From: Nitrospirales bacterium
Lineage (GTDB): Bacteria > Nitrospirota > Nitrospiria > Nitrospirales > UBA8639
Assembly: GCA_965223295.1 (NCBI GenBank)
Contig: CBDCWC010000003.1
Coordinates: forward strand, 864,001 to 928,000
Direction: 5' to 3'
Length of the DNA: 64,000 nt
Positions 763 to 23,724 of this stretch are shown piece after piece. The translations under genes and the position numbers were made by a program. The notes beneath the pieces are model-generated. The model saw only the letters and a list, made by a program, of their open reading frames with translations, had not been told where the DNA came from and searched no databases. Each line of letters begins with the position of its first letter. Within the stretch, counting starts at the first letter, position 1.

Positions 763-894
763 GCTGAAGATATTAAAAATCTAACGACAGGAGAACGCTA
801 AACAGTCAGCTATTGATTCACCAAGGATTAGCTTTCCATGCATAGATCGAGACCAATTTTGACTTGGGCAAAATAACAAGAACGCAAGAGCCTT

Positions 895-1428
895 CTACGA
901 TCTATTGGTATTTTTCAAAGTGATATCAACCATCATCTCGTCGGCGAGGCGCTCCAGAATAGTGCGGACCTGTTCGGAATCAGTCTGGGTAGGGAGGACG
1001 AGCTCTGTCTCGGCTCGAAAAATTCGTTCTCCTGACATAGGAGCACTTTCGACAACAGTCCGAAGATCTTGCATGCTGACGCCAAGAGCCGCCAACTTAC
1101 TCGAGATCTCTCGTACAATCCCAGGGCGGTCTTGTCCAACTAACTCCAGCTGTAACGAATTGTGATGATCGACACTGGCCAATGACCAGTCGCTGTCCAC
1201 CACACTCACGGAAAGCCCGCGGTCAGCCAGCATGGGAAGAGCCGCCATGAAGCTCTCCGTCTGATTTTCAGGTAGATGAATCTGGACGACTCCCGCGAAA
1301 TGTCCGGCCAAGCGCGCCATACGACTTTCGTCCCAACTCCCTTCATATTGCGCGATGACATCCGCCAGAGATTCAACCAGTCCAGGCCGATCTTTACCGA
1401 TGACTGTGAGAACTAATGCCCGAGTCAT
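895..1428 (-). CDS. GcvR-like tandem ACT-domain protein
   Basis: Two ACT repeats, LTVIGKDRPGLV and LELVGQDRPGIV. Confidence 0.85.
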   Translation of the reverse strand: MTRALVLTVIGKDRPGLVESLADVIAQYEGSWDESRMARLAGHFAGVVQIHLPENQTESFMAALPMLADRGLSVSVVDSDWSLASVDHHNSLQLELVGQDRPGIVREISSKLAALGVSMQDLRTVVESAPMSGERIFRAETELVLPTQTDSEQVRTILERLADEMMVDITLKNTNRS

Positions 1429-1677
1429 AGGGGCAGTCTAGACATTCACCCTGTCGCATTACAAGATCTAACCAAAAACCTGGTGCCACATCCGAATGTC
1501 TCTGTATAAGGAAGAACGAGAAGTCAAAGCGGCATGAACTCGACCTTGAAAGTGATGTAGCCCACAAAGAGGCTATTTTGGTGTGAGGATAAAAAGAAAC
1601 CTGTTTTTAGAAGATAGGGAATCGGGAAATGAGGGAATGACAAGAAAGTCACATGATTTTTTCGACCCTTCTTTCTT

Positions 1678-1865
1678 GGTCTGTTGAATAATTCAATTTC
1701 AAGTTACGTAAAGGCCTTCAGAGCATGGTGACTTCAATGCGACGGGAATGGTCAAAAAAGTCCGCCCAGCAAGGCCACAGCCCTTTATGCACGCGGAGCG
1801 TACTGGTTCCACGTGAGCACGGAACAATGGCGAGAACGCCGCTGGCGGCTTTTTTCAACATTCCC
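1678..1865. repeat. MITE-like element, copy 1 (core 1744-1865)
   Basis: Ends GGTCTGTTGAATAA...TTTTTCAACATTCCC; core is the near reverse complement of 23358-23478. Confidence 0.8.
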
Positions 1866-1973
1866 TTTCTCAAACCTGGAATAGCTCACAATTCCTGTCA
1901 CCTGTTGAACGCATAGCCAATTCCACACCTTTGCTTTTCATCTCAGAATGGAGAAAACATCGCTCAACTCTGG

Positions 1974-2720
1974 CTATCGCGTCGGTACGTCAAACACGAG
2001 GAATTCACAGCCATGAGAAATATCCAGGGAGAATTCTCGACTGTCTCGTATCCCAAAACCATCGCCTTTTACCAATTGCTGGCCCAAGACGGTCATTTGC
2101 CCATCGATGATATACACAAAGGCATGGTTTTCCGCTAACTTGGGTTGGTAGCTCAGGCTCTTGGAGTCTTGAAAATTTCCATAACTGATATACGCGTCCT
2201 GCTGGACAACCAAACTTCCGTCAACGCCATCAGGGGAAAGGACGCATACGAGATGGGACTCGTAGTCGCTTGGCTCAAAGTGTTTGCGATTAAAATTTGG
2301 TGGGAGATTTTTCGCTCGCGGTATCAACCATATTTGCAGCGCGCGCATCGTTTCGGTTTCGGAATTATTTTCTTCGTTATGAACAATGCCGCTTCCCGCT
2401 GTAATAATTTGTATACCTTTGGCTTGGAGGCATCCGTTATGAGACGCGTCATTGGGGTCAATGTGGTTAACTTCCCCTGACACCATGAAGGTCACGACCT
2501 CAACATCGTGATGCGGATGAAATCCGAATCCTTTTGCGGCGGGCTGCAAAACGCCATCATCAATGGTGATCAGTGCGCCGAATCTCTGTCGTTCTGGCGC
2601 GAAATTCGGCTTAAAACAGAGGTGTGCCTGCATAAACCCAAAATCTTCAAATTTCCTGGTGTTTGCTGGCAAAAAAATCGTATCGCGTTTCAAGTCAATG
2701 CTCCTGTTAATGGCCACCAC
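1974..2720 (-). CDS. Pirin family protein
   Basis: GFGFHPHHDVEVVT, TAGSGIVHNE and LQIWL motifs. Confidence 0.92.
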   Translation of the reverse strand: MVAINRSIDLKRDTIFLPANTRKFEDFGFMQAHLCFKPNFAPERQRFGALITIDDGVLQPAAKGFGFHPHHDVEVVTFMVSGEVNHIDPNDASHNGCLQAKGIQIITAGSGIVHNEENNSETETMRALQIWLIPRAKNLPPNFNRKHFEPSDYESHLVCVLSPDGVDGSLVVQQDAYISYGNFQDSKSLSYQPKLAENHAFVYIIDGQMTVLGQQLVKGDGFGIRDSREFSLDISHGCEFLVFDVPTR

Positions 2721-3294
2721 CTAATATTTCTTCGCCCAGAATTTTCATGAGCTTGCCACCATCTTCACTCGCCCAATTGACCGCGAGGTCGGCAATGATG
2801 GCACTCGTCGTCGTCAATTCCACGCCAGAACGTTCCATACGACGAAAGGCCATTTCATCGGTCAACGTGGTCGGAGAACCGGAGGCATCAACAACACCGT
2901 AGACTTCAAATCCCTCATCAGCGGCACTGATCGCTGGCGGGTCCAGACAGACGTCGGTGGTCACGCCGGCCATGAGCAATTGCTTACGGCCCGTGTCGCG
3001 GCACGCCCGCGCAAATCGCTCATCATCCCAACAATTGACGACACCGGGTCGTTTAATCCGAGCGCCAAACGCGTCGGGTGCGATCGTTTCAAGAGCAGGC
3101 ATTAACGGCCCCTGCATGTGATCTTCCTGACTGCTGGTGAAAACCAGCGGCATGTTCAGAGCCACCGCCACCTTCGCTAATGCTCGTGTGTTGGCTTCCA
3201 CAATTGATTTTTCGATTGATCCGATCCAGTTCATGGTGCCAATTTGATGATCGATCAGAATCATTGCCGCATCACTCGCTTTGGCCTTTTTCAT
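2707..3294 (-). CDS. Isochorismatase family hydrolase (YcaC-like)
   Basis: LIDHQ and AGVTTDVC (catalytic Cys) motifs. Confidence 0.9.
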   Translation of the reverse strand: MKKAKASDAAMILIDHQIGTMNWIGSIEKSIVEANTRALAKVAVALNMPLVFTSSQEDHMQGPLMPALETIAPDAFGARIKRPGVVNCWDDERFARACRDTGRKQLLMAGVTTDVCLDPPAISAADEGFEVYGVVDASGSPTTLTDEMAFRRMERSGVELTTTSAIIADLAVNWASEDGGKLMKILGEEILGGGH

Positions 3295-3381
3295 AGTCCT
3301 ATCTCCTCAAGAGGTTGATGTGTAAAATAGGATTGTTACATAGGGTTGAACACATTCGTAAGTAGGTACATTATGGGAACC

Positions 3382-3738
3382 ATGAAAAAAACAGCGAGAG
3401 CCCACATCCGATCAAAATTGCCTTCGGCAACAAACTGTCCGGTCGAAACCACTATTGAGGTGATTGGAGGGCGTTGGAAGTGCCCGATCATTGATCAGTT
3501 ACTGAAAGGGACGAAACGTTTTCAAGAGCTGCGGCGAGCGATTCCAGACGCCTCGCAACGAATGCTCACGAAACATCTGCGTGAGCTTGAACACGATGGG
3601 CTCATTTATAGGGAAGTCTATACCGAAGTACCACCACGGACAGAGTACTCGCTCACCCCGATGGGTCGATCGCTAAAACCGGTATTGAGGGCGATGGCAG
3701 AGTGGTCAATGACGAATATGGGCGCAAAGCTGGAGTGA
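3382..3738 (+). CDS. HxlR family winged-helix regulator
   Basis: CPVETTIEVIGGRWK...VPPRTEYSLT; divergent from the hydrolase-pirin pair; start codon uncertain. Confidence 0.92.
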   Translation: MKKTARAHIRSKLPSATNCPVETTIEVIGGRWKCPIIDQLLKGTKRFQELRRAIPDASQRMLTKHLRELEHDGLIYREVYTEVPPRTEYSLTPMGRSLKPVLRAMAEWSMTNMGAKLE

Positions 3739-3980
3739 GCGTCCAGCCAGAGCGCCTGTTGACCGACGGTAATTTTTTCGGCTATTCGTCACAGTTCGGC
3801 CAGAAGCAGCCATTGCTCTTGTTTGATACGAAGGCAAAACAGACAATCATTGTTCACAACAGAAACTGCCGTAAAGCAGTCCCGGTTGCTTGTACTGAGT
3901 ATGAGACATTATTTTCCGCAGAATTGTCGTCATATCTATGTCAGTACTTACTTTGATAAAGTCAGTAACCATCGTTCTTC

Positions 3981-4924
3981 CTACTCGTGTGTCAGATTTT
4001 TGCATACCTGCTCAATATGTCGATAATCGGTTCCACAACAGCCTCCCAATACGGTTATATGTGGGGCGAGGGATTTTAAGTTGGCAAGCTCTGCACCAAA
4101 TTGTGTTGGTTTCCCTCATCAAGGGTTTCTGATTCAATCAATTCCGCATGACTAGGGCAGGAGGCATTGCCCCGCAATCCTTTGACACGATTTAACCAAC
4201 TATCTTGTGCGTTAAAAAGATACGAAAAATGTGTGGGGTGCGCACAGTTAATCATATAGTAAGCCGGACCACGATCAGTAGCCTGGTCGACGGCATGTAT
4301 TGCCTGTTCTAGTGATTCACCTGTTGGAAGCTTGCCGTTGGTTTCGACGGTAAATGAAATGCACACGGGTAAGCCATATTCTTGAGCGGCTAGGGTAATG
4401 CCAATGGCCTCTTCAACGTAATTCAGCGTGAGGGCAGCTATCATGTCCGCATTAGATTTGGCGAACGTAGCGATTTGTGCTGAATGATAGTCTTGTGCTT
4501 TAGCCACCGTCATTTTTTGTGAGGGAATGTAGCCATCACCACGTGGGCCGAGGCAGCCACTGATCACAATCGGTGTATCCCCATTTTCATATCCCTCTCG
4601 AATATCTTCAATCAGTTTGACGGATTGAAGATTAAAGCTCTCGAGGACTTGTGGGGAATCGCCAATTTTATAGCTCCAATCTTTATTTGCCCTCCAGGTT
4701 GGTGTCTCAAGGATAAGCCCTAGTTGATAGCTCTGAGCCATTTCAGCGTAAGTTTTGTAGTAGTTAGATAGGGTTTTATAACCCTGTTGATGGCGCAATA
4801 AATCATAAGCAGCGAGTTCGGGTAAATCTAGTTGGTGGTGAAAAACTAGATCGGTTTTCATTCCGCCATCGGTAATACAGATTTTGTCATCTAGCTGCGG
4901 TAATTGTTGTGTGGTGATTCCCAT
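3981..4924 (-). pseudogene. Homocysteine S-methyltransferase family, frameshifted near the 3' end
   Basis: ITDGG, INCAHP motifs; the Zn-binding VLGGCCGTDYRHI continues in a different frame after ~4110 and ends at TAG 3981. Confidence 0.85.
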
Positions 4925-5143
4925 ATCATTGTCCTTCTTTTGAGTAGATGGTGTGCATAGAGTGAATAATTCAATGTGATCAGATTAGTCTTAGGACTGA
5001 ATTTTTCTAGTGAACTGCCGTTACTTTTTTTCATATTTTTAATAAACTACACTAAAGACGAGGGGATAGAGACTTGATAAGTAGGCACGTAAACCACTAA
5101 GGACCTCGGTGCTGCTAGAAACTTGACTCGGGGTAAAGTAAAT

Positions 5144-5752
5144 ATGGCCACAAAAGGTGAAGCGACCAAAGATCGATTACTGGATATAGCCGAGCGGCAT
5201 ATCCTTCAGAATGGTTTCGCTGCCACTTCAATAGATAATTTGATTAAGGAAGCCGGTATCACAAAGGGAGGGTTCTTCTATCACTTTAATGGGAAAAATG
5301 CCCTGGCCTATGCGTTGATGCAACGATACCGAGAGCGAGACGCGTTTTTATTCAGTGGCCTGTTCAAACGTGCCGAAGAACTGACCGACGATCCACTCCA
5401 GCAAATACTGGTGTTTGTCAAATTACTGGCTGAAATGATGGAGAATCTTGAGGGGCTTCAACCCCGGCTGCCTTGTGGTCTCGTTTACTACGAAAGTCAT
5501 CAAGTGAACGACGAAGTTCACAAGATCACAGCAGACAGTGTGATGGATTGGCGAAGATTATTCAGAGAGCAACTTGATAAAATCAATGCAAGATATACAG
5601 CAAATAGCGACACCACCAGTGATGATCTAGCCGATATGCTTTCAACGATCATCGAAGGTGGTATCGTCGTCTCGAGAGCGCTCAATGATCCTTCGATTTT
5701 GATAAAACAGCTACTGGAATACCGATCATTTGTTAACTTGTTGTATTCCTAA
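5144..5752 (+). CDS. TetR/AcrR family regulator with a local compensated frameshift
   Basis: HTH AGITKGGFFYHF; around 5460-5490 the family-typical PGCLVVSFT is read in an alternative frame. Confidence 0.85.
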   Translation: MATKGEATKDRLLDIAERHILQNGFAATSIDNLIKEAGITKGGFFYHFNGKNALAYALMQRYRERDAFLFSGLFKRAEELTDDPLQQILVFVKLLAEMMENLEGLQPRLPCGLVYYESHQVNDEVHKITADSVMDWRRLFREQLDKINARYTANSDTTSDDLADMLSTIIEGGIVVSRALNDPSILIKQLLEYRSFVNLLYS

Positions 5753-5942
5753 TATCAGCAATGAGGCACGCCGTTGTTCAGCCAGTAATCGCGAATGATC
5801 TACTTGAATGAGCCGTTATGCTTTCAGGTCTTGTTCCCTTATTTCTTTGCACACAGAATTCACCCTGGCCGCTTTGGGTCGAATAGCGAACATCTCCCAG
5901 CTCGATCCTAATCATTCCCCACTTAAAAAGGGGGCTATAATT

Positions 5943-6568
5943 ATGATTAGTTTCTCTCAAGCCGCACCAGCGTCAGCGCCTTGAAATAAAGGCCAACTCA
6001 TTGGGCAAAAACCGACCTTAAAACTCCGGGAGATCAGGGCAATCCGCATCAGACTGCAGCTCAAGAACGATCCACGAGAATTGGCCATGTTTAACTTGGC
6101 CATCGACGGTAAGTTACGCAGTTGTGATCTCGTGCACCTCAGGGTGCGAGATGTCTTTCATGGCCATAGGATTGCTCCGCGAGCCATGGTGCTACAGCAG
6201 AAAACCCACCAGCCGGTTCAATTTGAGATCACGGAACAAACCAGAGAGGCTCTCACCAACTGGTTGGGCTCCCATCATTATCGACCAGACGACTATCTGT
6301 TTCCGAGTCGCATCAATCGTTCGCATCATCTTTTCACCCGACAATAGGCCCGAATCGTTCACAAGTGGGTCGAAATGATGGGCCTTGATTCCGCACTCTA
6401 TGGCACACATTCATTGCGAAGGACAAAAGCCACGCTCATCTACCGGCGAACGAAAAATCTTCGAGCGGTGCAGCTCTTATTAGGCCACACCAAACTAGAA
6501 AGTACCCTTCGTTATCTGGGGATAGAAGTGGAGATGCACCGGAAATGGCGGAACAGACCGAGGTTTGA
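5943..6568 (+). pseudogene. Small (~200 aa) tyrosine recombinase, inactivated
   Basis: P*NKGQLIGQKP...KLRSCDL...TRQ*ARIV...HSLRRTKA...LLGH...LRY; TGA at 5982, TAG at 6345 and a frameshift near 6533 (alternative frame DAPEMAEQTEV*). Confidence 0.9.
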
Positions 6569-6614
6569 ACAAAAGGATGACTAGCGGCCTTGGATACAAG
6601 GTCGCTATCCGGCC

Positions 6615-8279
6615 CAGGCTGTGTAAAAACTTATCTCCCCCTCCCATTGCCACGCGCTAGGAGGCGCGTCAGCCCATCTCCTCTTGAGTGGTGCGTTGAG
6701 ACGAGCGTTTTTGCTTTGTGCCACTACGAGCCACCTGATGCATTACCCGTGGCCCTCATGTGCCAATTTTTGTGTGATAGGAGGGTGGCTCTCACATCTG
6801 GAATGCCTGAAGGAGCGGGGTCACACCGAATATCGCCAGCACCCGTTTGAAGTTGTACGCCAAGACATGCAAGCTCATCTCGGTGCGCACCTGCTTGAGG
6901 GTTTTGGTTTGAAAGTGGGTATATCCTATCCACGCTTTTAAGGTGCCAAATGGATGCTCGACCGTTTGTCGTCGCGTGCGCATCCGCTCCGGTTCTCGAT
7001 CCAGGCGGGCTTCTGGGGCTTCCAGTACGGCTTCATGTTCCCAGCGTGTTATTCGCCGGTACTGACTGGTCGTGCATTGCGACTTGATAGGGCAGGTCGG
7101 ACAGTGGGATGACCAGTATTTGTGGAGCGTTAAGCCTTTCTCCTCTGTCTCGAATCGCCAGACCAAGCGTTTACCAGCCGGGCATGCATATTCATTTTCG
7201 TCTGCGTGGTACATGAAGTCGCGTTTGCTGAACAAGCCTTTTTTGGTGCTTCCCGATGTTTGAGGTTTGGGGAGATACGTCGTGATCTGGGACTGCTCAC
7301 AGGCCAGGAGTTCTTCACTGGTGAGGTATCCTCGATCAGCGACCACCTCAAGCGTTTCCGCTCCGATGGCCTCCTTCGCGTGTTGTGCCATGGGGTGCAA
7401 CTGGTGACGATCGCTGCCGGCATTGGTCACCTCATGCGCCACAATCATATGGTGCTCCACATCCACGGCCGTTTGGACGTTATACCCGACGATGCCGGTG
7501 CCCCGCGCTTTCATTGATCGAGCATCCGGGTCCGTTAATGAAATCTGTTGATCTGGCGCGTGATGTAGCTGGACTTCGAGTTTCTTGAGGCGGGCCATTT
7601 CTGTCTTCAGGGCCGTGATCTTGTCCTCGAGCCGTTGAGTCTTTTCATTGGCCACAGTCGCTTCTTGGCGATCCGCACTGGCGATCTGGCTCAGATACCG
7701 GGCAATGCTTTCATCAATCTGTTGCAACCGACATTTCATCTTGGCGGCGGTGAAGTTCTTGTCTCGGTTATTGACGGCCTTGAACTTACTGCCGTCAATG
7801 GCGACGAAGACGTCGGCAAACAGATTGAGCTTCTTGCACAGCAGAATGAACTCGCGACAGACCAAGCGGATGGCGGCGCCATTGTTCTTACGAAAATCAG
7901 CGATGGTCCTAAAGTCTGGGGCTAAGCGGCCAGTGAGCCACATGAGCTCCACGTTGCGGTGGGCTTCGCGTTCCAGGCAACGACTGGACTGCACTCGGTT
8001 GAGATACCCGTAGACATAGAGCTTGAGCAGGGTCCTTGGATGGTAGCCTGGGCGACCCGTGTCTTTCGAATGGGTTTCGAAGCCCAGCCCGGAGAGATCG
8101 AGGTCGTCAATGAAGACATCGATCACTCGAACGGCGTTGTCTTCAGCAATGTACTCATCCAATCGTTCGGGAAACAAGGTCGCTTGATGCCGATCGGTCC
8201 CTTGAACAAATCCGCTCATTCATGACACCTCCGTAGGAAAACCCTATTATACTCTCCCACCGAGTTTTCACACAGTCTG
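6615..8279 (-). mobile_element. IS1182 family insertion sequence
   Basis: Inverted repeats CAGGCTGTGTAAAAACT / AGTTTTCACACAGTCTG, flanked by a GGCC duplication (6611-6614, 8280-8283). Confidence 0.9.
6792..8219 (-). CDS. IS1182 family DDE transposase
   Basis: GRPGYHP, PDFRTIADFRK, IDGSK, TDPDAR, ADRGY and VEHPFGTLK motifs; single open frame. Confidence 0.95.
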   Translation of the reverse strand: MSGFVQGTDRHQATLFPERLDEYIAEDNAVRVIDVFIDDLDLSGLGFETHSKDTGRPGYHPRTLLKLYVYGYLNRVQSSRCLEREAHRNVELMWLTGRLAPDFRTIADFRKNNGAAIRLVCREFILLCKKLNLFADVFVAIDGSKFKAVNNRDKNFTAAKMKCRLQQIDESIARYLSQIASADRQEATVANEKTQRLEDKITALKTEMARLKKLEVQLHHAPDQQISLTDPDARSMKARGTGIVGYNVQTAVDVEHHMIVAHEVTNAGSDRHQLHPMAQHAKEAIGAETLEVVADRGYLTSEELLACEQSQITTYLPKPQTSGSTKKGLFSKRDFMYHADENEYACPAGKRLVWRFETEEKGLTLHKYWSSHCPTCPIKSQCTTSQYRRITRWEHEAVLEAPEARLDREPERMRTRRQTVEHPFGTLKAWIGYTHFQTKTLKQVRTEMSLHVLAYNFKRVLAIFGVTPLLQAFQM

Positions 8280-8347
8280 GGCCAATAGCGGACATGTTAA
8301 TTTGTGCTTCTTACTGACACTGTCGGTATGGGGGAATTAGTTGTGGC

Positions 8348-9348
8348 TCATTCTGCCCTTGTGCTGGAATGTAGGAGTGGCTTGGAAGATCGATATTCAT
8401 AAGGGGCTTTCCCTGTGTGTCGTCGAATGAGTTGACGAAGTGCCGCTGGATGTGAATAACCAACCTGATTGGAGATTATTTCAAAGTTAAGATTGGTTGT
8501 CTGAAGAAGTTGGATTGCACGTTCCACGCGAATACGTTGGATAAACTTATTGCAAGATATTCCAGTTGCCTCAATCATGCGCCGAGCCAACGTTCTTGGA
8601 CTCACACCAACTCCCCTCGCTATTTGAGCTACCGTTATTGGCTGTTCTACATGCTGTCTTATCCAAATTTCTGCTCTTCGCGTCTCGTCGTTACTTCTGG
8701 CCAAAAAATGAGAAACCCCAAAGCGTGCTTGAGAGTTTCGCCCGTCAAGAAGCAAGAACTTTGCGACCGCATCACTTAGGTTGGGGCCAGATAAAAGTCC
8801 TAATAACGTTAGAGCCAAGTCCATATGGGCCATGGCCGCGCCCCCACAAATAAGCGAGTCTTCCTGTGTCACCATGGTCTCAAGCTGGAGTCGAACATTG
8901 GGGTATTGATCTCGAAAATCTTTTGCCAACCACCAAGACGTGGTTGCTAAGCGATGATCTAGAAGACCAGTTTCGGCCAGAATAAATGTAGAAGTGCAGG
9001 AGGCAGCAATGCTGCTCCCGTTTTCATATTGGTGCAGTAGCCACCTAATAGCAGCGCGCGTATTTTTTCCCCAAGAGAAGCATTCATCGATTGCCCATCA
9101 AATAACTCCAAGCCCGGTATAACAATAACGTCTGCGAGCAATCCGTCCTGAATCGTTATGTCTGCTAAAATCTGTTGGCCACTACCAGTCGTAATGCGTT
9201 TTTTCCCAACACAAATTATTTGTAGAGTAAATGGCAAAAACCCGGAGTCTCCTTTAGCCATTTGGGCACCCATGCGAAGAACATCATGGGTTAAGGAAAA
9301 AGCCGAATCGAACACTTGATCTAAGACTAAAATCCCAACAGTTTTCAC
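8348..9348 (-). pseudogene. GlxA-type (DJ-1 plus AraC) regulator, frameshifted
   Basis: N-terminal half in ORF 8959-9384, C-terminal AraC HTH in ORF 8348-8929; the bridging ASCTSTFILAETGLLD...ATTSWW is in the downstream frame after a shift near 9065. Confidence 0.82.
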
Positions 9349-9607
9349 AAAAAACAAACTACCTAACCTCATGGGAAATAACAATAACTCCTCGAGACTT
9401 TACGGTGCGTTTACTCCAATATTTTGGCTAATTGACAATATTAATCGGATTTTGTCCATTTTGAATTCTTGCAAAAGGAGCCTCGTTTTCTAATAATAAT
9501 TTCAAGAGGTTTACGTAAGATTGGCAACAGAAATTCTGTTCTACCCATGAACATATTTGAAAGAAATTTTAATCGTCTTAGCCATTTTATTTGTCCTGCC
9601 ATTTTGA

Positions 9608-9955
9608 ATGTTTGAAATAAATAAATTCGTTTACAAAGACCTCTCAATTGAACTGTCTCTGATCGGACGTCTTGATCGGAATGCTAAACAAGATTTTCAA
9701 AAGGAGATACAAAAATCTCAATGCATGAGACCCCAGAAAATTTATATCAACCTTGTCGAAGTTTCTTCCATTGATTGCGTGGGCGTGGGTATGTTGGCAT
9801 CAGCGCACACTAGCTCAAGGCAACTTCAGATTGCCATTGTACTTATCGTGACTAAGGGACATGTTCTGCAAACCCTAGAGATAGCTGGAATTAAGAGAAT
9901 ATTGCCTGTGATTTACGGCGATCATCACAATAACTTCCCCTTGAACCTACTTTGA
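9608..9955 (+). CDS. STAS-domain anti-sigma factor antagonist
   Basis: LIGRLD...INLVEVSSIDCVGVGML; Cys occupies the usual phospho-Ser position. Confidence 0.75.
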   Translation: MFEINKFVYKDLSIELSLIGRLDRNAKQDFQKEIQKSQCMRPQKIYINLVEVSSIDCVGVGMLASAHTSSRQLQIAIVLIVTKGHVLQTLEIAGIKRILPVIYGDHHNNFPLNLL

Positions 9956-10079
9956 ATTTTTATCTTAATCCTCTCTCTTTCATATGAACTCAACGAATGG
10001 ACTATCGTTTTGGGACGTATGTCTTTTGAATTTTCTGACCGCATAGATAGCGAATTATGTAATCCCTGTTGATCAATAA

Positions 10080-10304
10080 ATGGCCAATTCGATGGGATTT
10101 GAGCCATGTGTTGGCTTTTTACGGAAACTTTTGATGACTGAAGAGGATGCTGTGAAGTTAAGAGAAAAATGGAAAAAGATCTATAAGGGCAGGACGTGTC
10201 AACATAGGCAATTGGTAAATAGTTTAAAATCAAATGAAGGAAAATCGCTAGATGTTTGGATTTGTATGGAATGTGGAAAAATTCTAGAAAACTCTCAATC
10301 ATGA
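10080..10304 (+). CDS. Small hypothetical protein with CxH...CxxC (possible Zn binding)
   Basis: TCQH...WICMECG; start uncertain. Confidence 0.5.
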   Translation: MANSMGFEPCVGFLRKLLMTEEDAVKLREKWKKIYKGRTCQHRQLVNSLKSNEGKSLDVWICMECGKILENSQS

Positions 10305-10478
10305 ATTTCAGTGATCATAGTCAAAAGCTAAGACGGAGGAATTTGGTGAATAAACTAATTAAGCTGGATCAAGCTTTCCTAATGTCCACTGTGGGTCGAG
10401 AGCCGGCCAAAAGCGAGCACAATAGAATGAACTGTTGAGCGTTTTAAAAGACCTGTTAGATTACTTATTGGGAGTACC

Positions 10479-10511
10479 ATGTAACCGAATCCCATATTCG
10501 GTTACATTTTA
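10479..10511. terminator. Perfect 12-bp hairpin (terminator or REP-like) between convergent genes
   Basis: ATGTAACCGAAT-CCCAT-ATTCGGTTACAT followed by a T run. Confidence 0.55.
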
Positions 10512-10611
10512 TACAAAAAGAACGAGCCTCTTATCCGTGTCGTACAAAAGGCCCGGTTCCAAGAAAATAGTTTAGTGTGTGGGTTGATTCTCTGTCGCCC
10601 TGATGCTCCGG

Positions 10612-11070
10612 TTATTTTTCTACTAAATGGAGATTCTCGATAATTCCCCCATCAAACCGAATAAACTGGTCTTTGGAGCCAAACCTAAAGATGCCGGAGG
10701 AATACATCACGTTATTCGTAAAATTGAAAATTAAGGTGGTATAGTCAGGATGTGACTCTTCTAACCAACTGACCATATACAGCCTTTCACCAATTTTTCG
10801 AGATTGATAGGGCAGATCTTGATTCTTATGCCCTGTTCTTGGTCCCACAATCCATTCATATTTCAGCATTCCATCATAGAGCTCTAGATGAATTCCTCCC
10901 CCATTTTGATAATAATAGTTCATGGAGGTCCCATCTAATAAATGTTCGGCTTGCCTTGCCTCCGCCTCTTGCCTGGCTTCTGCTAACGACGTATCTCCTG
11001 GTGTTTCCTCCGCGAACACGTGACTCGTACATGCAAATGTAATCAAACTGGCGACAATTATTGTTTTCAT
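10612..11070 (-). CDS. Exported MoaF/phenolic-acid-decarboxylase-like beta-barrel protein
   Basis: Signal peptide; YYYQNG...YQSRKIGERLYMVSWLE pattern. Confidence 0.65.
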   Translation of the reverse strand: MKTIIVASLITFACTSHVFAEETPGDTSLAEARQEAEARQAEHLLDGTSMNYYYQNGGGIHLELYDGMLKYEWIVGPRTGHKNQDLPYQSRKIGERLYMVSWLEESHPDYTTLIFNFTNNVMYSSGIFRFGSKDQFIRFDGGIIENLHLVEK

Positions 11071-11282
11071 ACGACACTCCTAGTTGGGCTTGTAGTGAAT
11101 GCAGGAAAAACGGTCTCTCTAAATATTGTAACCTTGGGCAGAAGGCCCGAGTTCTTTGCGGCTAAGCGACGCTCTGAATCATGCATCCGCCGCAAGCCCC
11201 CAACGTTGTCTCAGGAAAAAATCTCTGGATTGCGGATAAATAGTTTACATGATGTGGGATGTAGTAACGCACTGTCGTGAAA

Positions 11283-12059
11283 TCAGAATTTTCCACTGTT
11301 GTTCCAAGTCTCTTTTGGACCGATTTTCTCCTGCACGTCCCAGTGCTCAACAAACCTGCCGTCTTTCAACCGAAAGATATCAAAGAAGGCCCAGTCTTCA
11401 GCACTTACTAGCGTATGGCTCAAGGCCACCACAAAATTGCCCTGGCCGATCAAGTGGTGGACTTTGAGGTATCTCGCACCCTTGTCGCGAACCTCTTGTA
11501 GATGCTTATTAATCCCCTCCAGCCCATCCCCAATTTCGGGGTTGTGTTGGTGGCATTGTTCGCTAGAGATGTAATCCGTCACCTTGTCAAACTTGCCACC
11601 CATCAGCACGTCATCGAAAAAGGCCCGGACGATCGCCTTGTTCCCATCGGTCTTATCGAGGTCTTCAACCTCGGTCGGCCCATCAACCATCGTGCGGCCT
11701 GAAACTGTCTCCTCAACGTAAGGTGCGAGCACATCCCAATGTTCGATCATCCGGTCTTCATCATCAGTATCAAACAGATCGGCGGTGACCCATTTGGTTT
11801 CGCCCTTATTCAAGCTCTGATAGACATGGACGAAAACTTTTCGGCCATCTTCGATGGCACGGACCACCTGAATGTCACGCACGGGGTTGCGCGCGAGAAA
11901 TGGTCGAAAGAATTCCATGAACCCTGCCTTCCCATCAGCGACACCTGTGGAATGTTGGGTGTAGCGGTCGCCTATGTATTTCTCAAGCGCCTCGCGCAGG
12001 TTCCCGTCTCGAATGCCTTCGAGGTACAGGCCGATCGCGTGTTCCTTTTTGCGACTCAT
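11283..12059 (-). CDS. Tandem SnoaL/NTF2-like domain protein
   Basis: YTQHSTGVADG...IEHWD and HQHNPEIGDG...VEHWD repeats. Confidence 0.88.
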   Translation of the reverse strand: MSRKKEHAIGLYLEGIRDGNLREALEKYIGDRYTQHSTGVADGKAGFMEFFRPFLARNPVRDIQVVRAIEDGRKVFVHVYQSLNKGETKWVTADLFDTDDEDRMIEHWDVLAPYVEETVSGRTMVDGPTEVEDLDKTDGNKAIVRAFFDDVLMGGKFDKVTDYISSEQCHQHNPEIGDGLEGINKHLQEVRDKGARYLKVHHLIGQGNFVVALSHTLVSAEDWAFFDIFRLKDGRFVEHWDVQEKIGPKETWNNSGKF

Positions 12060-12134
12060 TGGGTCTCCCTCCTCTCCTTCGTCTGCTAGGTGAACAAGTT
12101 GGGATCTCTCACTCGCAGTGCTAAGATAAAAGGC

Positions 12135-12551
12135 ATGAAAACCAATAGCAATGATAGTTCCGGATCCGGCATTACTCCTTTGGAAATCATTGAGTACGGC
12201 GCTGAATTAACCCGCAGGTTTTCAGAGAAGTATGGCGGACAAACGACCATCAACCAGTTACGAGTCATTCACTCGGTCTTGACCTGCCTTTATCGGAACG
12301 GCCCTGACTACTCGTGTACCGTGAAGTGGATACATGAGGACACCGGCATACCTTTGAGCACCATAAGCCGTGCCCTGGCTGGTCTTGTCGAGACAGGTAG
12401 GATAGCCGAAGAGTCGAATCCAGATGATGGCCGTAGCCGGCTCATAAGACTCGGCCCAAAGTCGAAAAGGACTCCTGCGGACCTCAGATTTCTCGGTGAG
12501 TGGATACTAGATCGGCAGAAAAATATCCCGCCGACAAAACGGCCACCCTAA
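12135..12551 (+). CDS. MarR-like HTH regulator
   Basis: TGIPLSTISRAL...PDDGRSRLIRL. Confidence 0.75.
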   Translation: MKTNSNDSSGSGITPLEIIEYGAELTRRFSEKYGGQTTINQLRVIHSVLTCLYRNGPDYSCTVKWIHEDTGIPLSTISRALAGLVETGRIAEESNPDDGRSRLIRLGPKSKRTPADLRFLGEWILDRQKNIPPTKRPP

Positions 12552-12607
12552 CCTGATAGTCGAGGTGGGCGACGGCTCTGGATCGCAACCTACTGAAATC
12601 GGAGTCT

Positions 12608-13135
12608 TCACGGAATCCACAACGTCGGTTGAAGCCACTGTCGGGGCACAGATAGTCTTCCTGCACACGGCGTGATACTTTTTCCCAAATTTTGTGACTG
12701 CCATGCGCCCTCCCATTCAACTGACAAGGGAAATGGCGGCCTCACTAAAGACTCTGGAAGAAACCCGAGACGGCCGTAAAAAGCAGGATCCCCAAGCACA
12801 TAGACCCAATTTACGTCCTTGTCTTCTAGCCGTCGTAAGCCTGCGCGCACGATCGCACTCCCGATACTCTGCCTTTGCCACGCTGGCGCGACAGCGAGTG
12901 GCCCGAGTAGCGCAGCACTGCCATTAGTCCCATCCACGCCACATTTCGTAAAGATCACGTGCCCTATAATCTGCTTGTCAATCGTTCCGACGAGCGATAA
13001 GGCAACGGCTGCCTCGCTCAAAAGATTTCGCACAAGGGGAAGCAGATTTTCATCAGGAAACGCGTTCGGATAAAGTGACTCAATCGCCACCGAATCGCCC
13101 TGTCTGCTTTCACGGATTTCAAGCTTTTCCGACAT
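12608..13135 (-). CDS. GNAT N-acetyltransferase (YhbS-like)
   Basis: LLGPLAVAPAWQRQSIG, VLGDPAFYGRLGF; start uncertain. Confidence 0.9.
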   Translation of the reverse strand: MSEKLEIRESRQGDSVAIESLYPNAFPDENLLPLVRNLLSEAAVALSLVGTIDKQIIGHVIFTKCGVDGTNGSAALLGPLAVAPAWQRQSIGSAIVRAGLRRLEDKDVNWVYVLGDPAFYGRLGFLPESLVRPPFPLSVEWEGAWQSQNLGKSITPCAGRLSVPRQWLQPTLWIP

Positions 13136-13215
13136 TGCGGTATCCGAATACCGTCGATTGTTCATGCAGAGCACCAACCGTCATAGGGCACTATGGACCA
13201 ATTATCGTCCTTTGC

Positions 13216-13599
13216 TCACTCGTACTTCGAGACTTCGATTAGATTCAGATCCGGATCTCTAAAATAGAGTGATGTTGTTTTCCCAACCGCTCCGGTTCGT
13301 GCTACAGGCCCATCTATAATTGCGACCCCACATAGCTCAAGATGTTTTTTAGCTTCCTCTATAGGCGTTTTTAAAATAAAACATAGATCAGCACTACCCG
13401 CCCCTACCTTCCCAGCTTTTGGCTCAAATTCTTTGCCAAGTTGATGTACGTTAATTTTCTGATTCCCAAATGATAAGGCTATGCGGCCTTCACCAAATGA
13501 AACTCGCTTCATCCCTAAAACCATTTCGTAAAAAGCTACGGTCTTTTCAATATCAGCAACCGTTAGGACTAAATGATCCAAGCGATCAATTTCTATCAT
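13216..13599 (-). CDS. VOC/glyoxalase family protein
   Basis: LDHLVLTV...GSADLCF...YFRDPDLNLIEVS. Confidence 0.93.
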   Translation of the reverse strand: MIEIDRLDHLVLTVADIEKTVAFYEMVLGMKRVSFGEGRIALSFGNQKINVHQLGKEFEPKAGKVGAGSADLCFILKTPIEEAKKHLELCGVAIIDGPVARTGAVGKTTSLYFRDPDLNLIEVSKYE

Positions 13600-13844
13600 G
13601 GATAGATCCTCTGAATAATAAAGTTCATATTATGCTTGAGGTCATGAAGATTCGGGAAGACTATCACAAACCAAAACCATCTTTAGTCCGCTTTTGGATC
13701 AGGTTGGGACCATCGAAGCCCTAGAATTCATTTCCATTGGCGAACAGATATTCTCGGCGAGTTCGCAGTCATTGAGTTGTGCTAAAAATAATGAGAACAT
13801 GCTTAGAAAGTTCGGCCGTCTATCTTAATAAGGAGTATGGTGAA

Positions 13845-14210
13845 ATGATCAAATTTGTGATGTGTTTGCGCCGGCATCCAGGTATGACTCGTGAGCAGTT
13901 TCAAGATTATTGGACGAACAAACATGGCCCTTTCTTCATGAAAAATGCTGACGCGATGCGAGCAAAAAAATATGTGCAATCTCTTACGATCGATACCCCT
14001 ATAAACGAAGGATTGAGAAATTCTAGAGGCATGTTGCCAGAATATGATGGTGTCGCAGAGGTGTGGTTTGAATCAGAAAACGATCTCATGGAGGCAATGA
14101 GTTCACCGGAGGGGCAAAAACTAGGTGCCGCACTACTAGAAGATGAGGGGAATTTTATTGATCACACTCAATCTTCGGCATTCATTGTTAAGGAGCATGA
14201 ACTTAAGTAG
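13845..14210 (+). CDS. EthD-domain protein
   Basis: RRHPGMTREQFQDYW...HGP, YDGVAEVWFES, DEGNFID; AAGGAG upstream. Confidence 0.88.
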   Translation: MIKFVMCLRRHPGMTREQFQDYWTNKHGPFFMKNADAMRAKKYVQSLTIDTPINEGLRNSRGMLPEYDGVAEVWFESENDLMEAMSSPEGQKLGAALLEDEGNFIDHTQSSAFIVKEHELK

Positions 14211-14435
14211 TTGAAGACGGTTCCCAAAGTTTCACTATGAGCACTAGTTGCCATGGAATTGAGCGTCTAGTGGGACGTTAGCAGAAGAATAGGCCAGGCC
14301 GTAGATCCTCACTTTTCTCTCCCTCTAAATTGCTACTAGGAGCTACCCCGCCCCCCAGCAGCATTATCTCTAGATTTCCATGCTCACGTACATAGGGTAG
14401 GCCCCGCGGATAAAACTGTCTGTGGCCTTACTGGA

Positions 14436-14466
14436 CCTGGCTTCGCCGAAGCGGCTTCGCGCAGGC
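14436..14466. repeat. Short GC-rich REP-like hairpin
   Basis: CCTGGCTTCGCCGAAGCGGCTTCGCGCAGGC with nested CTTCG/CGAAG arms. Confidence 0.45.
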
Positions 14467-14590
14467 GAGCCGACCCTTCAATCAACTCAGGGCAGGCTTT
14501 TTCGAACTGACCTGCTACTTCTGACTGCAACTCCCTTCCTGGCCCAATATGTCCTCCTTAACCTCTGATTCAACAACTCCATTATGCATA

Positions 14591-14626
14591 TTGACAGCAT
14601 ACTGTCTTTATGACATATTACTTTCA
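14591..14626 (+). promoter_or_regulatory. Sigma70-type promoter overlapped by a putative MarR operator
   Basis: TTGACA-17 bp-CATATT; palindrome GACAG-CATA-CTGTC (14593-14606) and an imperfect second copy just before the ATG. Confidence 0.65.
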
Positions 14627-14628
14627 TA

Positions 14629-15111
14629 ATGGCACAGACCAAAGGAGTACATTTCGGACGACACCATACACCGGGCGGAGCAGCCTTTACCGAACTTCTC
14701 CTCGAAACCTTCAAACTGAATGGATTACTACTCCTCGAAGGTGATCGCCTGGTTCATCATCTGAATTTGACGAGTGCGCGGTGGCAAGTGATGGGAGCCA
14801 TTGATCTGGCACTGGTTCCGCTGACAGTGGCTCAGATCGCTCGCAACATGGGCTTACAGCGCCAAAGTGTTCAACGGCTTGCCAACGTTCTTGCCTCTGA
14901 AGGGCTTGTTCAGTATGTCGAGAATCCCCATCATCGACGAGCGAAACTTGTGCAACTGACCCAACGTGGCCACACAACCTTGAACAAGGTCAAACAGATA
15001 CAAGTCGAATGGGCAAATCAGATTTCGGCGGGAATACCAAAACGTGACTTGCGGCAAGCCGTAGACGTGCTGCGAACACTCAGCAAGCGGTTGAAAGGAA
15101 AGCGGTCATGA
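14629..15111 (+). CDS. MarR family regulator
   Basis: LTSARWQVMGAI...QRQSVQRLA...NPHHRRAKLVQLT. Confidence 0.92.
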   Translation: MAQTKGVHFGRHHTPGGAAFTELLLETFKLNGLLLLEGDRLVHHLNLTSARWQVMGAIDLALVPLTVAQIARNMGLQRQSVQRLANVLASEGLVQYVENPHHRRAKLVQLTQRGHTTLNKVKQIQVEWANQISAGIPKRDLRQAVDVLRTLSKRLKGKRS

Positions 15112-15557
15112 AAACTGGAATGATCATTCAACGCGTTCACGCCATCGCGGGTATCCTAGGCTTTCTCACTATTCTGACGTTCTGGATCTCCACAGCATGG
15201 TCAGAATTATTTGGGACTCAAGAAATGATTGCTACCGTCAAGCGCAATATCCTGTGGGGCATGCTGATCCTCGTTCCAGCGATGGCGGCCGTGGGGGGAA
15301 GTGGGTTCCGTCTCATGAGAAAGGAAAATGATCCTCTTATTTCGGCAAAAAAACGTCGCATGATGATCATTGGTCCAAACGGGCTATTCGTACTCCTTCC
15401 CGCAGCCATCTACCTCAATGCCCTAGCCTCTCAGGGCATGTTCGGGACTTCTTTCTACGCAGTACAAACCATCGAGTTGATTGCGGGCGCGGGCAATCTC
15501 ACCTTGATAGGACTCAATATGCGTGACGGTCTTCGAGCGACCGGGCGCCTCAATTAG
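15108..15557 (+). CDS. Four-TM hypothetical membrane protein
   Basis: Hydrophobic helices; ATGA overlap with the MarR gene. Confidence 0.8.
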   Translation: MKTGMIIQRVHAIAGILGFLTILTFWISTAWSELFGTQEMIATVKRNILWGMLILVPAMAAVGGSGFRLMRKENDPLISAKKRRMMIIGPNGLFVLLPAAIYLNALASQGMFGTSFYAVQTIELIAGAGNLTLIGLNMRDGLRATGRLN

Positions 15558-15874
15558 GGGTACCAGTATCCTATGCATCTAGCGAGAACATACACATCTC
15601 TCAAACAGAATTGCTATCTACACAGAGGCGCTGGAGCAACTTTGCGGAAATGGATACGGACCTGACAATATTCAATACCAATCAGAGTAAGCCAACTGTC
15701 GAAAATTGAGTTTGAGGCCAGTTGCCTTCCCATGCTGGGCTAGGAGTGCTACTATTTTCTCTCGACTACAAGTCATTGCAACAAGATAAAGAGTGTCTGA
15801 GTATCCTAATTACCCTGATAAGAAAATTCGCTGCTCCATTCCTTTTTCTACCCCTTCGGGAAAACTCAACCAAC

Positions 15875-18343
15875 ATGTCAATCCAGACTAATAACCCTAG
15901 AACACTCAGTTGGCGTCGGGTGAAAAGTCATGAACTTGCCACGTTCGTTCTTGTCTGGACCTTATCTCTGTTCGCGTCGTCCACATCCATTGCTAGCTCG
16001 TTGCCAGTTGTGAGAATTGCCGTGTTGTATGATGGACCACATTCCGATTTAGGGATGGGGAAATTTATTCGGCAGGGCCTTATCCAAAAAGAAATTCTTT
16101 CACTGACCAGGGGAGAATTTGATGTCCAGTTTCCTAAAAAATATCAAATTCATGCCGGATGGTCGGTCAAAAAAGTCGATCAAGCTCTGACAGCGTTGGT
16201 AAAGGAACCCTCTGTCGATATGGTTCTGACCTTAGGCCTCCTTGGCACGAATGCCGCACTCCACCGAAAAGGATTTTCGAAGCCAGTCATTGCCCCTTTT
16301 GTCATCGATGCGGAACTCCAAGGCGTATCTTTGGCCACAGGGAAAAGTCGTATTCCTAATCTCACGTACCTCACTTCATTTAAAAGTTTTGAACGAGACT
16401 TGAAAGCATTTATGGAACTCGTGTCATTCAAGCATCTCGCACTGATTGAAGATGCCGTGATCCCAGAAGCGATTCCGCAGATATTGGAAAAAATTAACCG
16501 CGCGGCCCGCGCCAATGATATCAGGATTTATCCCATTCGAGTGACCAGTTCTACCAAACCTCTTTGGGAACAATTACCACCAGAAACCGATGCCGTATTT
16601 GTCGTCCCCCTCTTTCGACTCCCAAGCAAAGAATTTGATTCCATGGTCCAAGGCTTTATCGAGAGAGGGCTTCCTAGTTTTTCCCTCACCGGACGAAGTG
16701 AAGTGGAGCGTGGAATATTCTCTGGCCTTGCACCCGAAACTGATTCTATCCGTATGGCTCGACGGATTGCGTTGAACGTGCACCGAATTTTACTGGGGGA
16801 ACCAGCTGAGGATCTTCCTGTTACGTTTTCCGATGGCGAACAACTCACCATCAACATGGCCACTGCTCGAGCCATTAACATCTGGCCTAGCTTCCGTATC
16901 CTGACCGAAGCCACTCTGTTGAACGAGGAATCGCAAGGGATTCCGAGGAAACTCTCTCTCTATAGCGTTGTGCGAGAAGCAGCCCATGTGAATTTAGATT
17001 TGGCTGCAGCCGATAGGCAGGTGGCTGCTGGCATTGGAGCGGTGCAGAATGCCCGTTCGGCCTTGCTCCCACAAATTTCCATCGGGAGTTCGGCCAATCT
17101 CATAGACGAGGATCGGGCCACAGGAGGGTTTGGGAATAACCCCGAAAAAGCTGCCTTTGCCCAAGGCTCCTTCGAGCAATTGCTGTATTCAGATACAGCC
17201 TGGACGAATTATACCGTCGAACAACGCAACCAAGATTCTCGAAAGGCGAACCGTCGACAAGTCGAACTGGATGTGACACAAGAAGCCGCCCTCGCCTATT
17301 TAGACGTTCTCAGGACCAAAACCATTGAATCCATTCGAAAAGAAAACCTCAAGTTAACACGATCCAATTTGGAGTTAGCGCGCATTCGAGAACAGGTTGG
17401 AGCAGCCGCACGTGATGAAGTGTTTCGATGGGAAAGTGAAATTGCCAACGGTCGCATTGACGTGCTGAATGCCCAAGCCCAACGTCAACAAGCCGCGATC
17501 AGTCTGAATCGCACCTTGTATCGTCCCCTCGAGGAGCTCTTTGAAACCACGGAGGCCGGTCTCGAAGACCCTATCTTATTTCATGATGTCGAACGAATTT
17601 TTGTCTATGTGAATAATCCGAGAAATTTTCAGATATTTCGAGACTTTCAGGTCCGCGAAGGCCTGCGATTATCTCCTGAACTCCATGGATTAGAAGCCAG
17701 CATCGCCGCACAACAACGGAGACTATTGAATGCCGAACGAGGCTTTTGGGCACCCGACCTGGTGCTGCAGAGTGATGTGAATCAGCGAATTGCTCAAGCT
17801 GGTGCTGGACAGAGCATACCTCCCGGGGTGCCGGCTCAAGATCGAACAACATGGAATCTTCAACTGGGTCTCTCCTTTCCCTTATTTTCCGGAGGGGCGA
17901 AAGATGCGACTCAGAGCCAGGCCCTTGAAACTCTTCGCCAATTGCAACTTGAACGCGAGGCCGCAGTTGGGAGAATTGAAGAACGAATTCGATCCGCCAA
18001 TATAGAAGCCGGAGCGTCTTCGGCCACTATTCGCCTCGCCCGGGAAGCTTCTCATGCTGCCCAACAAAATTTACAACTCGTACGCGATCAATATTCTCGG
18101 GGAGCCGTGGATATCATTAAACTTCTCGATTCTCAGAATGCGGCTCTTACGGCTAACCTTAACGCCGCCAACGCTGTGTACGAATTTCTCATTGATATCA
18201 TTAATATTCATCGTGCGGCAGGTTCTTTCCCATTTTTTGACTCATCAGAAGAACTCGAATCTTGGCACAACCGATTAGAAACCTATTTTCTAGAACAGGG
18301 TATCGACACCAAAACCGAGATAGTCAGGAGTCCTTTTCGATGA
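15875..18343 (+). CDS. TolC family outer-membrane efflux protein with N-terminal substrate-binding-like domain
   Basis: C-terminal half has two OEP repeats; about 350 extra N-terminal residues ending LTINMATARAI, typical of ABC substrate-binding domains. Confidence 0.82.
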   Translation: MSIQTNNPRTLSWRRVKSHELATFVLVWTLSLFASSTSIASSLPVVRIAVLYDGPHSDLGMGKFIRQGLIQKEILSLTRGEFDVQFPKKYQIHAGWSVKKVDQALTALVKEPSVDMVLTLGLLGTNAALHRKGFSKPVIAPFVIDAELQGVSLATGKSRIPNLTYLTSFKSFERDLKAFMELVSFKHLALIEDAVIPEAIPQILEKINRAARANDIRIYPIRVTSSTKPLWEQLPPETDAVFVVPLFRLPSKEFDSMVQGFIERGLPSFSLTGRSEVERGIFSGLAPETDSIRMARRIALNVHRILLGEPAEDLPVTFSDGEQLTINMATARAINIWPSFRILTEATLLNEESQGIPRKLSLYSVVREAAHVNLDLAAADRQVAAGIGAVQNARSALLPQISIGSSANLIDEDRATGGFGNNPEKAAFAQGSFEQLLYSDTAWTNYTVEQRNQDSRKANRRQVELDVTQEAALAYLDVLRTKTIESIRKENLKLTRSNLELARIREQVGAAARDEVFRWESEIANGRIDVLNAQAQRQQAAISLNRTLYRPLEELFETTEAGLEDPILFHDVERIFVYVNNPRNFQIFRDFQVREGLRLSPELHGLEASIAAQQRRLLNAERGFWAPDLVLQSDVNQRIAQAGAGQSIPPGVPAQDRTTWNLQLGLSFPLFSGGAKDATQSQALETLRQLQLEREAAVGRIEERIRSANIEAGASSATIRLAREASHAAQQNLQLVRDQYSRGAVDIIKLLDSQNAALTANLNAANAVYEFLIDIINIHRAAGSFPFFDSSEELESWHNRLETYFLEQGIDTKTEIVRSPFR

Positions 18344-23267: not shown

Positions 23268-23357
23268 ATCCGTCCCAATCCTGAGACTCTCTCTACATTT
23301 TTGCTCTTCTCTTTTTTTGGGGACCTATTTCTTTCAAGATAGTTTCAGAAAAATATA

Positions 23358-23547: not shown

Positions 23548-23724
23548 ATATAGAAAGCTGATGCGTTTCAAGCAGTTGAATCAGGCAAAACCCGGAAAGA
23601 AAATTATGCCGTTTGGTTGCAAAACCATGTTCTTTATTCAAAATATCGGGTAAGATATACGATTGTAAGCTGGTAACCTCTTTAAAATTTTCCTCCTATC
23701 CTATTCAGGCGAAAGGGTAACGCA

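Follow-up and report, generated by a model that had tools for sequence, protein, structure and literature searches.

We analysed a window of 64,000 nucleotides from the genome of a Nitrospirales bacterium (positions 864001-928000 of contig C3 in genome G000, which has 3.78 Mb and 47% G+C; G and L denote our genome and locus labels), in which the original prediction, made from this sequence by itself, had placed a fossil gene-cassette system of a non-integron kind around a small tyrosine recombinase. Comparison with other genomes supports that proposal, and from the sequence evidence the region is probably a worn-out island of a family of site-specific systems that shuffle gene modules. The recombinase, of about 208 amino acids and consisting of a catalytic domain only, is encoded in a unit of about 750 bp that is bounded by its own sites. 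Sites of the same kind, all in one orientation, lie between neighbouring blocks of one to four accessory genes, and both the junctions between blocks and the hybrid sites fall within a GGTCG core next to the left arm of the site. In the window itself the system is dead. Two stop codons and a frameshift interrupt the recombinase gene, a core-targeting insertion sequence (IS) has split the right site of its unit, and the other sites vary from one that is intact (10382) to one that can barely be recognised (13185). The records of the closest relatives are Nitrospirales or Nitrospiraceae metagenome-assembled genomes.

The recombinase pseudogene lies at 5943-6568 on the + strand and is present as a single copy in the genome. 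Three-frame translation located a TGA at 5982-5984, a TAG at 6345-6347 and a 1-nt deletion near 6527, in agreement with the earlier description of the enzyme as broken. Despite these interruptions the window copy retains the catalytic motifs (the R-K-H-R-H pentad and the tyrosine nucleophile), and it is 81% identical to an intact homologue. Homologues carry PF00589 and align with XerD over the catalytic domain only (residues 130-281), where the LR, K, HxLR, GH and Y positions match those of XerD and of an XerC-like structure, as is expected of a tyrosine recombinase. The assertion that the enzyme is not an IntI was also correct, as the integron integrase models TIGR02249 and NF011946 scored 20.3 bits (cut-off 265) and 17.6 bits (cut-off 435), with a C-terminal piece only, and the protein has about 208 amino acids vs. 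about 320 for IntI.

When the gene piece 5985-6344 was used as a query, 43 loci were recovered from public genomes. The proposal that two sites bracket the recombinase gene was confirmed by the closest of these, since a left and a right site are kept around all eight homologues of at least 74% identity; in each of these eight loci the left site lies about 50 bp upstream of the start codon and the right site follows a stem-loop. In one of the loci (L006) the right site has even received an IS insertion at the same GGCC as in the window. The module, of about 750 bp, is 79-87% identical between the window and L001-L006, with the similarity running from 5866-5871 to 6610-6623, so that both of its ends lie in the two sites, and with the flanks unrelated. 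Its neighbours differ at every locus (CopB, a Rieske oxygenase, an HDOD protein, PRA isomerase, a TonB receptor and others), its orientation relative to its own sites is the same in all homologous modules, and the flanking sites are direct repeats. The protein family has at least 8000 members at E<=1e-10 and is represented on 444 of 72,556 plasmid records; many members come from contigs that are about 0.8-1.1 kb long. An intact member of 69% identity is found beside the cop cluster of plasmid pMOL30 of Cupriavidus metallidurans CH34 (L118, 198530-199156), where the right site is recognisable and the gene is annotated merely as a 'tyrosine-type recombinase/integrase'.

A module that recurs among unrelated neighbours could also be the only part of the island that moves. 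Under this alternative, which we consider unlikely, the unit of about 750 bp is an integrative element of IS size that inserts into pre-existing intergenic palindromes resembling repetitive extragenic palindromic (REP) sequences, and the cargo mosaic arises from ordinary island turnover and from homologous recombination between palindromes, with the cargo unmoved by the recombinase unit. In its favour, no block other than the recombinase unit was seen to recur in many contexts in different phyla. How this explanation fares depends on the sites themselves and on the junctions of the cargo units, which are described below.

The sites of the window were scored with position weight matrices (PWMs) and with a covariance model of the composite site (R1), all of which were trained only on sites from other genomes; counts of genome positions scoring as high were set against a reversed control. 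The site occurs in three forms: minimal sites have 28-29 bp, composite sites 37-40 bp and long sites 53-54 bp. All the motif strings listed in the original prediction are present at their positions, and by the relatives-trained models the consensus derived from them corresponds to the true core; part of the site list is noise. The left site of the recombinase module (5865-5893, + strand) consists of an 11-bp arm, a 7-bp spacer containing GGTCG and an 11-bp inverted arm. It scored 40.9 bits with the left-site PWM, vs. 18.7 bits for the next match in the genome, and 22.9 bits with the 18-mer PWM (three genome positions as high, none in the reversed control). The right site of the module (6598/8284) begins in a stretch at 6584-6614 (+) that also holds the stem-loop after the stop codon and is conserved in L001-L005 and L007; its inner arm is the best match in the genome (25.6 bits). 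The right, outer arm resumes beyond the IS at 8284-8295 (+), with 18.9 bits by the outer-arm PWM (five as high in the genome), and the outer half scored 26.8 bits with the 18-mer PWM (two as high, control 0). Site D (10382-10420, +) is a complete 39-bp composite site with no recombinase gene within. Its R1 score of 30.1 bits (E=1.5e-5 in the window and 8.3e-4 genome-wide) is the highest in the genome, and its left-type 18-mer scored 23.2 bits, with two positions as high. Thus the sites given earlier as 5866, 6600/8284 and 10382 are among the top two or three of the 3.78-Mb genome. The left border of the variable region is formed by site A, a degenerate 39-bp composite at 3775-3813 (+), whose right half scored 18.9 bits with the right-type 18-mer PWM (six as high in the genome, control 3) and which gave the second-best R1 match in the window (11.9 bits, E=1). 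An orthologous site is present in the relative G022, and the homology between that genome and the window stops at 3807; the weak copy that had been noted at 3787 therefore stands, as 3775-3813, by score, orthology and synteny break. These four sites (3775, 5865, 6598/8284 and 10382) all lie on one strand, as had been claimed. Between 3500 and 14600 there are four arms of at least 12 bits vs. 0.70 expected, two of the four being the module's own sites.

The other proposed sites fared less well. The 12570 site (12569-12606, +) is unsupported: it scored 8.4 bits, a value equalled by 2021 genome positions, and is absent from the 18-mer and R1 match lists. The weak copy at 14228 is at chance level by PWM. 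The 13685 site (13684-13722, +) is marginal, possibly an old site, with 12.1-13.5 bits and 70-109 genome positions as high (70 vs. 33 in the control at 12.1 bits); it is kept in G022, yet only at background identity. The 13185 site (13183-13211, +), a degenerate short-type site that forms the right border of the variable region, fails by PWM (<7 bits), and it is supported by the junction comparisons only. In the three contexts in which the VOC gene next to it was compared, homology starts directly after a short site-like palindrome. The chain of site-GNAT-site-VOC-site-EthD-site proposed earlier is not established. The view that single genes lie between sites does not hold for the window, where the units contain one to four genes.

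A further alternative is that the similarities outside the recombinase gene are chance, or operator or terminator palindromes with no role in recombination. The chance-level scores of 12570 and 14228, the marginal score of 13685, the overlap of the left site with the likely promoter region of the recombinase gene and the absence of covariation would fit such an explanation. However, site 10382 is the best match in the entire genome to a model built from other genomes, arms are enriched in the arrays of relatives, an IS specifically targets the sites, and junctions map to them. We therefore regard this explanation as very improbable, and for sites 3775, 5865, 6598/8284 and 10382 it is largely refuted. 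Two further candidates were tried and rejected. As a dispersed repeat of this genome, the motif gave 25 and 14 matches for two 12-mers with one mismatch vs. about 17 expected, and a palindrome scan gave five matches vs. seven in the reversed control. As a known RNA or structured family, an Rfam scan of 3000-15000 yielded only a hammerhead at E=0.61. Other site arms are found in the window's genome at C2:368000-374000, C2:874452-875207 and C3:1787744-1787779, with no recombinase gene nearby; one of these sets adjoins a paralogue of the VOC gene (C2:370370-370776).

The prediction that indel breakpoints in relatives would map to the sites was borne out by congeneric genomes, between which units are present, absent or reordered. 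G022 and the window are 92% identical at 1-3807 and at 13207-14418, with a different segment of 28 kb in between. The left break coincides with the end of site A, of which the two genomes have orthologous copies, and the right break is the end of the 13185 site, with homology resuming at 13207. A short palindrome resembling the sites ends at the same base as the 13185 site both in G022 and at the paralogous VOC copy on C2. A second relative, G012, has the same methyltransferase-TetR unit as the window, followed by one composite site at the place where the window has the left site, the recombinase gene and the right site. The left half of this composite site is that of the window's left site and goes with the upstream unit; its right half is identical to the right half of site A of G022 (18/18 nt) and is followed by the same two-gene unit in G012 and G022 alike. 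The halves of the hybrid site therefore travel with the adjoining units, as is expected for reciprocal exchange within the site. The unit 1 stretch of the window (3788-5830) is found with 81-82% identity in G012, G030 and L007, where it begins right after the right arm of a site, in contexts that differ from that of the window.

Relatives with an intact enzyme were also found to have arrays of same-orientation sites between units of one or two genes. G001, G002 and G003 each have one enzyme gene. In G001, where the enzyme is intact, a stretch of 7.5 kb surrounding the gene contains six arms of at least 13 bits, whereas the further 24.5 kb that were read contain none; all six are intergenic, have one orientation and separate units of one or two genes. 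Four of the seven genome-wide matches to a 16-nt pattern are at the recombinase locus of G001 (control 1), as are 6 of 20 in G002, where the rest fall mostly into four small enzyme-free clusters. G003 has five sites in 5.7 kb between single small open reading frames (ORFs), 2.2 Mb away from a truncated recombinase gene. In both the G001 and the G003 array, all left arms are on one strand. Contigs from four metagenomes of four studies, when aligned to the G001 array, departed from it at 12354 and 15978, both inside GGGTCG, and at two arm ends; one contig of 2.2 kb carries the DUF2726 unit alone with foreign flanks. A further joint, X1, which 'goes back 1751', includes 17 foreign letters, and its ends lie away from the sites; it was set aside as a hint only.

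These results bear directly on the possibility that only the recombinase unit is mobile. Against it stand the hybrid sites, whose halves go with different neighbouring units, the cargo-unit junctions, which in independent samples lie no more than a few bases from the GGTCG core, and the arrays, which are not dispersed but clustered in one orientation around the enzyme gene. In addition, an arm of 13 bp offers little length for homologous recombination. Under the preferred reading, whole modules would be shuffled by the following mechanism. The recombinase would bind arms of about 11 bp, a left one of ATGTCCGCTTT and a right one that is its inverted copy, and strand exchange would take place in the short, GGTCG-containing spacer of 7 bp that lies immediately 3' of the left arm. 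If two sites of the same orientation recombined, the intervening block would be freed as a circle with one rebuilt site, and the circle could then re-enter at any other site, by which blocks, the recombinase gene included, would be gained, lost and reordered.

The element that splits the right site of the module points to the same core. It is an IS at 6615-8279 on the - strand, with its transposase at 6792-8219; it belongs to the IS1182 family (NCBIfam NF033551, 450.6 bits vs. a cut-off of 270), has terminal inverted repeats that can be read directly in the sequence, and is flanked by a 4-bp duplication, GGCC, at 6611-6614 and 8280-8283. Twenty copies (L092-L111) in G010, G012, G018, G020, G021 and G022 were chosen by IS homology alone, and in 15 of the 20 a site arm scoring at least 11 bits was located no more than 40 nt from an end of the IS (four of the 20 are truncated, and one end was scored for those). 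These 15 copies immediately follow the left arm, and the 4 bp that are duplicated around them are GGTC, GGCC or GACC. Judged by these insertion points, the IS1182-family element homes to the same core at which unit junctions occur. In L001 (10515), L005 (9670), L007 (8427), L046 (6517) and L058 (673), and also at C1:36676 and C3:1660251 of the window's own genome, the left arm is immediately followed by an IS-like end of another, unrelated type, which suggests a second site-targeting element.

A paralogue of the small recombinase, of 39% identity, also bears on the relationship between enzyme and site. It is encoded in a module of its own of about 735 bp that begins at its own palindrome (L112-L117, in G018, G022, G024, G056 and G057), and the two arms of this palindrome change in step between sublineages. 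The co-varying arms of the paralogue, together with the sites that always bracket the small enzyme gene, fit a cognate pair of enzyme and site, and on this comparative evidence the sites are cognate to the small recombinase. It is conceivable that a host recombinase such as XerC/XerD uses the sites instead, as in the pdif modules of plasmids, and that the small enzyme is a passenger or an accessory factor. The 11-7-11 geometry of the site, the position of Xer proteins as the nearest solved relatives, the occurrence of sites in genomes without the small enzyme and the lack of a core-binding domain in that enzyme would all agree with a role for Xer. However, the constant bracketing of the small enzyme gene and the co-varying paralogue arms argue against it, as does the single orientation of the sites vs. 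the alternating orientation of pdif sites, and we consider service by a host recombinase improbable.

In a survey of 50 genomes of the genus, with R1 sites accepted at E<=0.05, the small-enzyme type was present in 8 (five intact, the two-stop copy of the window, one truncated and one fragment) and the 39%-identity paralogue in 7. R1 sites were present in 21 of the 50, namely in 6 of 8 genomes with the enzyme, 3 of 6 with the paralogue only and 12 of 36 with neither. Five of the 21 had supplied training sites; once these are removed the figures are 3 of 5 vs. 11 of 35, among kin. In alphaproteobacterial genomes with an enzyme of 59-63% identity, there are 19-75 short palindromes with the same arms (control 0) and one or two enzyme genes. 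In a sample of 61 genomes from one alphaproteobacterial family, the enzyme occurs in 3 of 7 palindrome-rich genomes vs. 2 of 54 others, or in 2 of 6 vs. 2 of 54 when the centre genome of the sample, which had been picked for having both, is left out. The persistence of sites without the enzyme in the 12 of 36 genomes of the genus, and the 19-75 dispersed palindromes that accompany only 0-2 enzyme genes in alphaproteobacteria, are what one would expect if the recombinase unit alone were mobile and entered palindromes that were already there. In G084 (C1:250-374 kb) and G130 (C2:1779-1828 kb), same-arm palindromes are spaced about 0.7-5 kb apart over tens of kilobases; those of G130 surround an enzyme-gene fragment, and no enzyme was found in G084.

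Several points weigh against our preferred reading of the region as a decayed module-shuffling island. No excision product, circle or activity has been observed. The right site of the module has a spacer that differs from that of the left site, so that a classical exchange between identical spacers is not obvious, and the enzyme, as it has no core-binding domain, may depend on a partner. The hairpin of the composite site showed no covariation beyond that of shuffles (79.1% vs. 78.1% of cells paired). With the training genomes removed, and given the kinship of the rest, the association between enzyme and sites across the genus is weak, and sites are present in genomes where the enzyme was not found, including one alphaproteobacterial genome with 40 palindromes and no detectable enzyme. 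The junction evidence comes from few genome pairs. The only site-to-site joint on the G001 array (X2, from 13158 to 17689, omitting 4.5 kb) was seen once; its short side has only 28 letters and it is therefore a hint only.

Integrons are among the known systems that the proposed island resembles. Both have a tyrosine recombinase linked to one-orientation arrays of imperfect palindromes between small accessory gene units, both have unit borders inside a short conserved core of the site, and both include arrays that lack the enzyme (CALINs, in integrons) and sites that are targeted by IS elements. However, the enzyme here has about 208 amino acids and a catalytic domain only, with scores far below those of the IntI models. 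A fixed integrase with an attI/Pc platform next to it is absent; the enzyme gene here is one of the site-bounded units of the array, with same-family sites and variable units on both sides of it. The window-type sites are 28-54 bp long, with a core, read directly as GGTCG, that differs from the integron core, and the units often contain at least two genes, in mixed orientation.

A second comparison is with the pdif modules of Acinetobacter plasmids. These sites are served by host XerC/XerD, and adjacent pdif sites alternate in orientation. As described in excerpts of three reports, pdif modules have sites of about 28 bp, with two 11-bp arms and a short spacer, are shuffled between replicons, and have sites that are targeted by a dedicated IS family (PMC6449649, PMC13141974, PMC10132070). 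The site-bounded gene modules, the similar site geometry and the site-targeting IS are thus common to both systems. Unlike pdif modules, the system described here encodes a dedicated mini-recombinase within a module, occurs in chromosomes of Nitrospirales-type genomes as well as on plasmids, and has its sites on one strand in G001, G003 and the window, with no alternation.

Two other groups also share features with the system. FimB and FimE are small tyrosine recombinases of about 200 amino acids that have no N-terminal core-binding domain, and in both respects they are like the enzyme of the window. However, they invert a promoter segment between inverted repeats, whereas here the flanking sites are direct and units are gained, lost and reordered. 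The REP/RAYT systems likewise combine a low-copy enzyme gene with a flanking family of short intergenic palindromes, of which tens are dispersed in the alphaproteobacterial case. However, RAYTs are HUH (Y1) transposases, and the enzyme here matches PF00589 and Xer-like catalytic domains only; moreover, the sites in the window's genus are few and clustered. On these comparisons, the system seems to work like an integron or pdif-module platform, yet it fails the defining tests that we put to each.

The system appears to be undescribed. No description of this combination of enzyme and site was found in the literature searched, although supplementary tables might list the subfamily, and the subfamily goes unmentioned in the text excerpts of Smyshlyaev et al. 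2021 (PMC8138268) and of the CH34 genome paper (PMC2864759). We tentatively propose, as an idea that may well be correct but to which we are not committed, that catalytic-domain-only recombinases of about 200 amino acids run a third and very widespread class of gene-cassette platform beside integrons and Xer/pdif. In such a class the enzyme gene would be a 0.75-kb cassette, the palindromic sites would be lineage-specific and co-evolve with the enzyme, exchange would occur in a short core beside one arm, and the 'REP-like' palindromes of alphaproteobacteria would be its footprints or docking sites; its range would span Nitrospirota, Nitrospinota, Bacteroidota and Proteobacteria, on chromosomes and on hundreds of plasmids. 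Integrons and Xer/pdif are the two accepted site-specific routes by which single genes are filed and reshuffled, and a third, if real, would change how accessory islands are read. It would operate with a minimal enzyme that does without the DNA-binding domain which recognition of a site is thought to require, its enzyme gene would travel as a cassette, and its range would take in chromosomes of environmental bacteria of the nitrifier type as well as those hundreds of plasmids. It would also account for a class of intergenic palindromes that have so far had no explanation, and would make a very small pair of recombinase and site available for study. The window itself is a dead, IS-damaged example, whose value lies in the family to which it points; together with its relatives, it provides a map of the GGTCG junction core and of an IS homing to that core.

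Finally, the gene content of the region is as follows. An HxlR regulator (3346-3738) lies upstream of site A. Unit 1 comprises a gene of the homocysteine S-methyltransferase family (4076-4924, -, Pfam PF02574) and a TetR regulator (5123-5752, +, Pfam PF00440), and it is followed by the recombinase module. Unit 3 (8296-10381), between the module's right site and site D, has an AraC-type regulator that is broken into two ORFs (8348-9384, -), a STAS protein (9608-9955, +) and a small ORF (10080-10304, +), the first two being assigned by Pfam; it had no DNA match among the matches listed for 40 relatives. Unit 4 extends from site D to the 13183 site (10421-13182) and contains, by Pfam, a MoaF-like gene (10612-11070, -), a double SnoaL gene (11283-12059, -), a MarR regulator (12090-12551, +) and a GNAT gene (12608-13177, -), the last of which is the only gene of the unit with DNA matches in relatives (71-77% identity) among the matches listed. 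Beyond the variable region, the VOC/glyoxalase-family gene (13216-13599, -, Pfam PF00903) is kept in G022, and its paralogue elsewhere in the genome is 86% identical. The EthD-family gene (13779-14210, +, NCBIfam TIGR02118) belongs to the backbone shared with G022, where it is 90% identical. When sequencing runs were compared by shared words, the highest share in any run was 0.33. A dispersed repeat of about 110-190 bp, with at least six copies in this genome, occurs in the window at 1678-1868 and 23352-23555, and it is present in many copies per genome throughout the genus.

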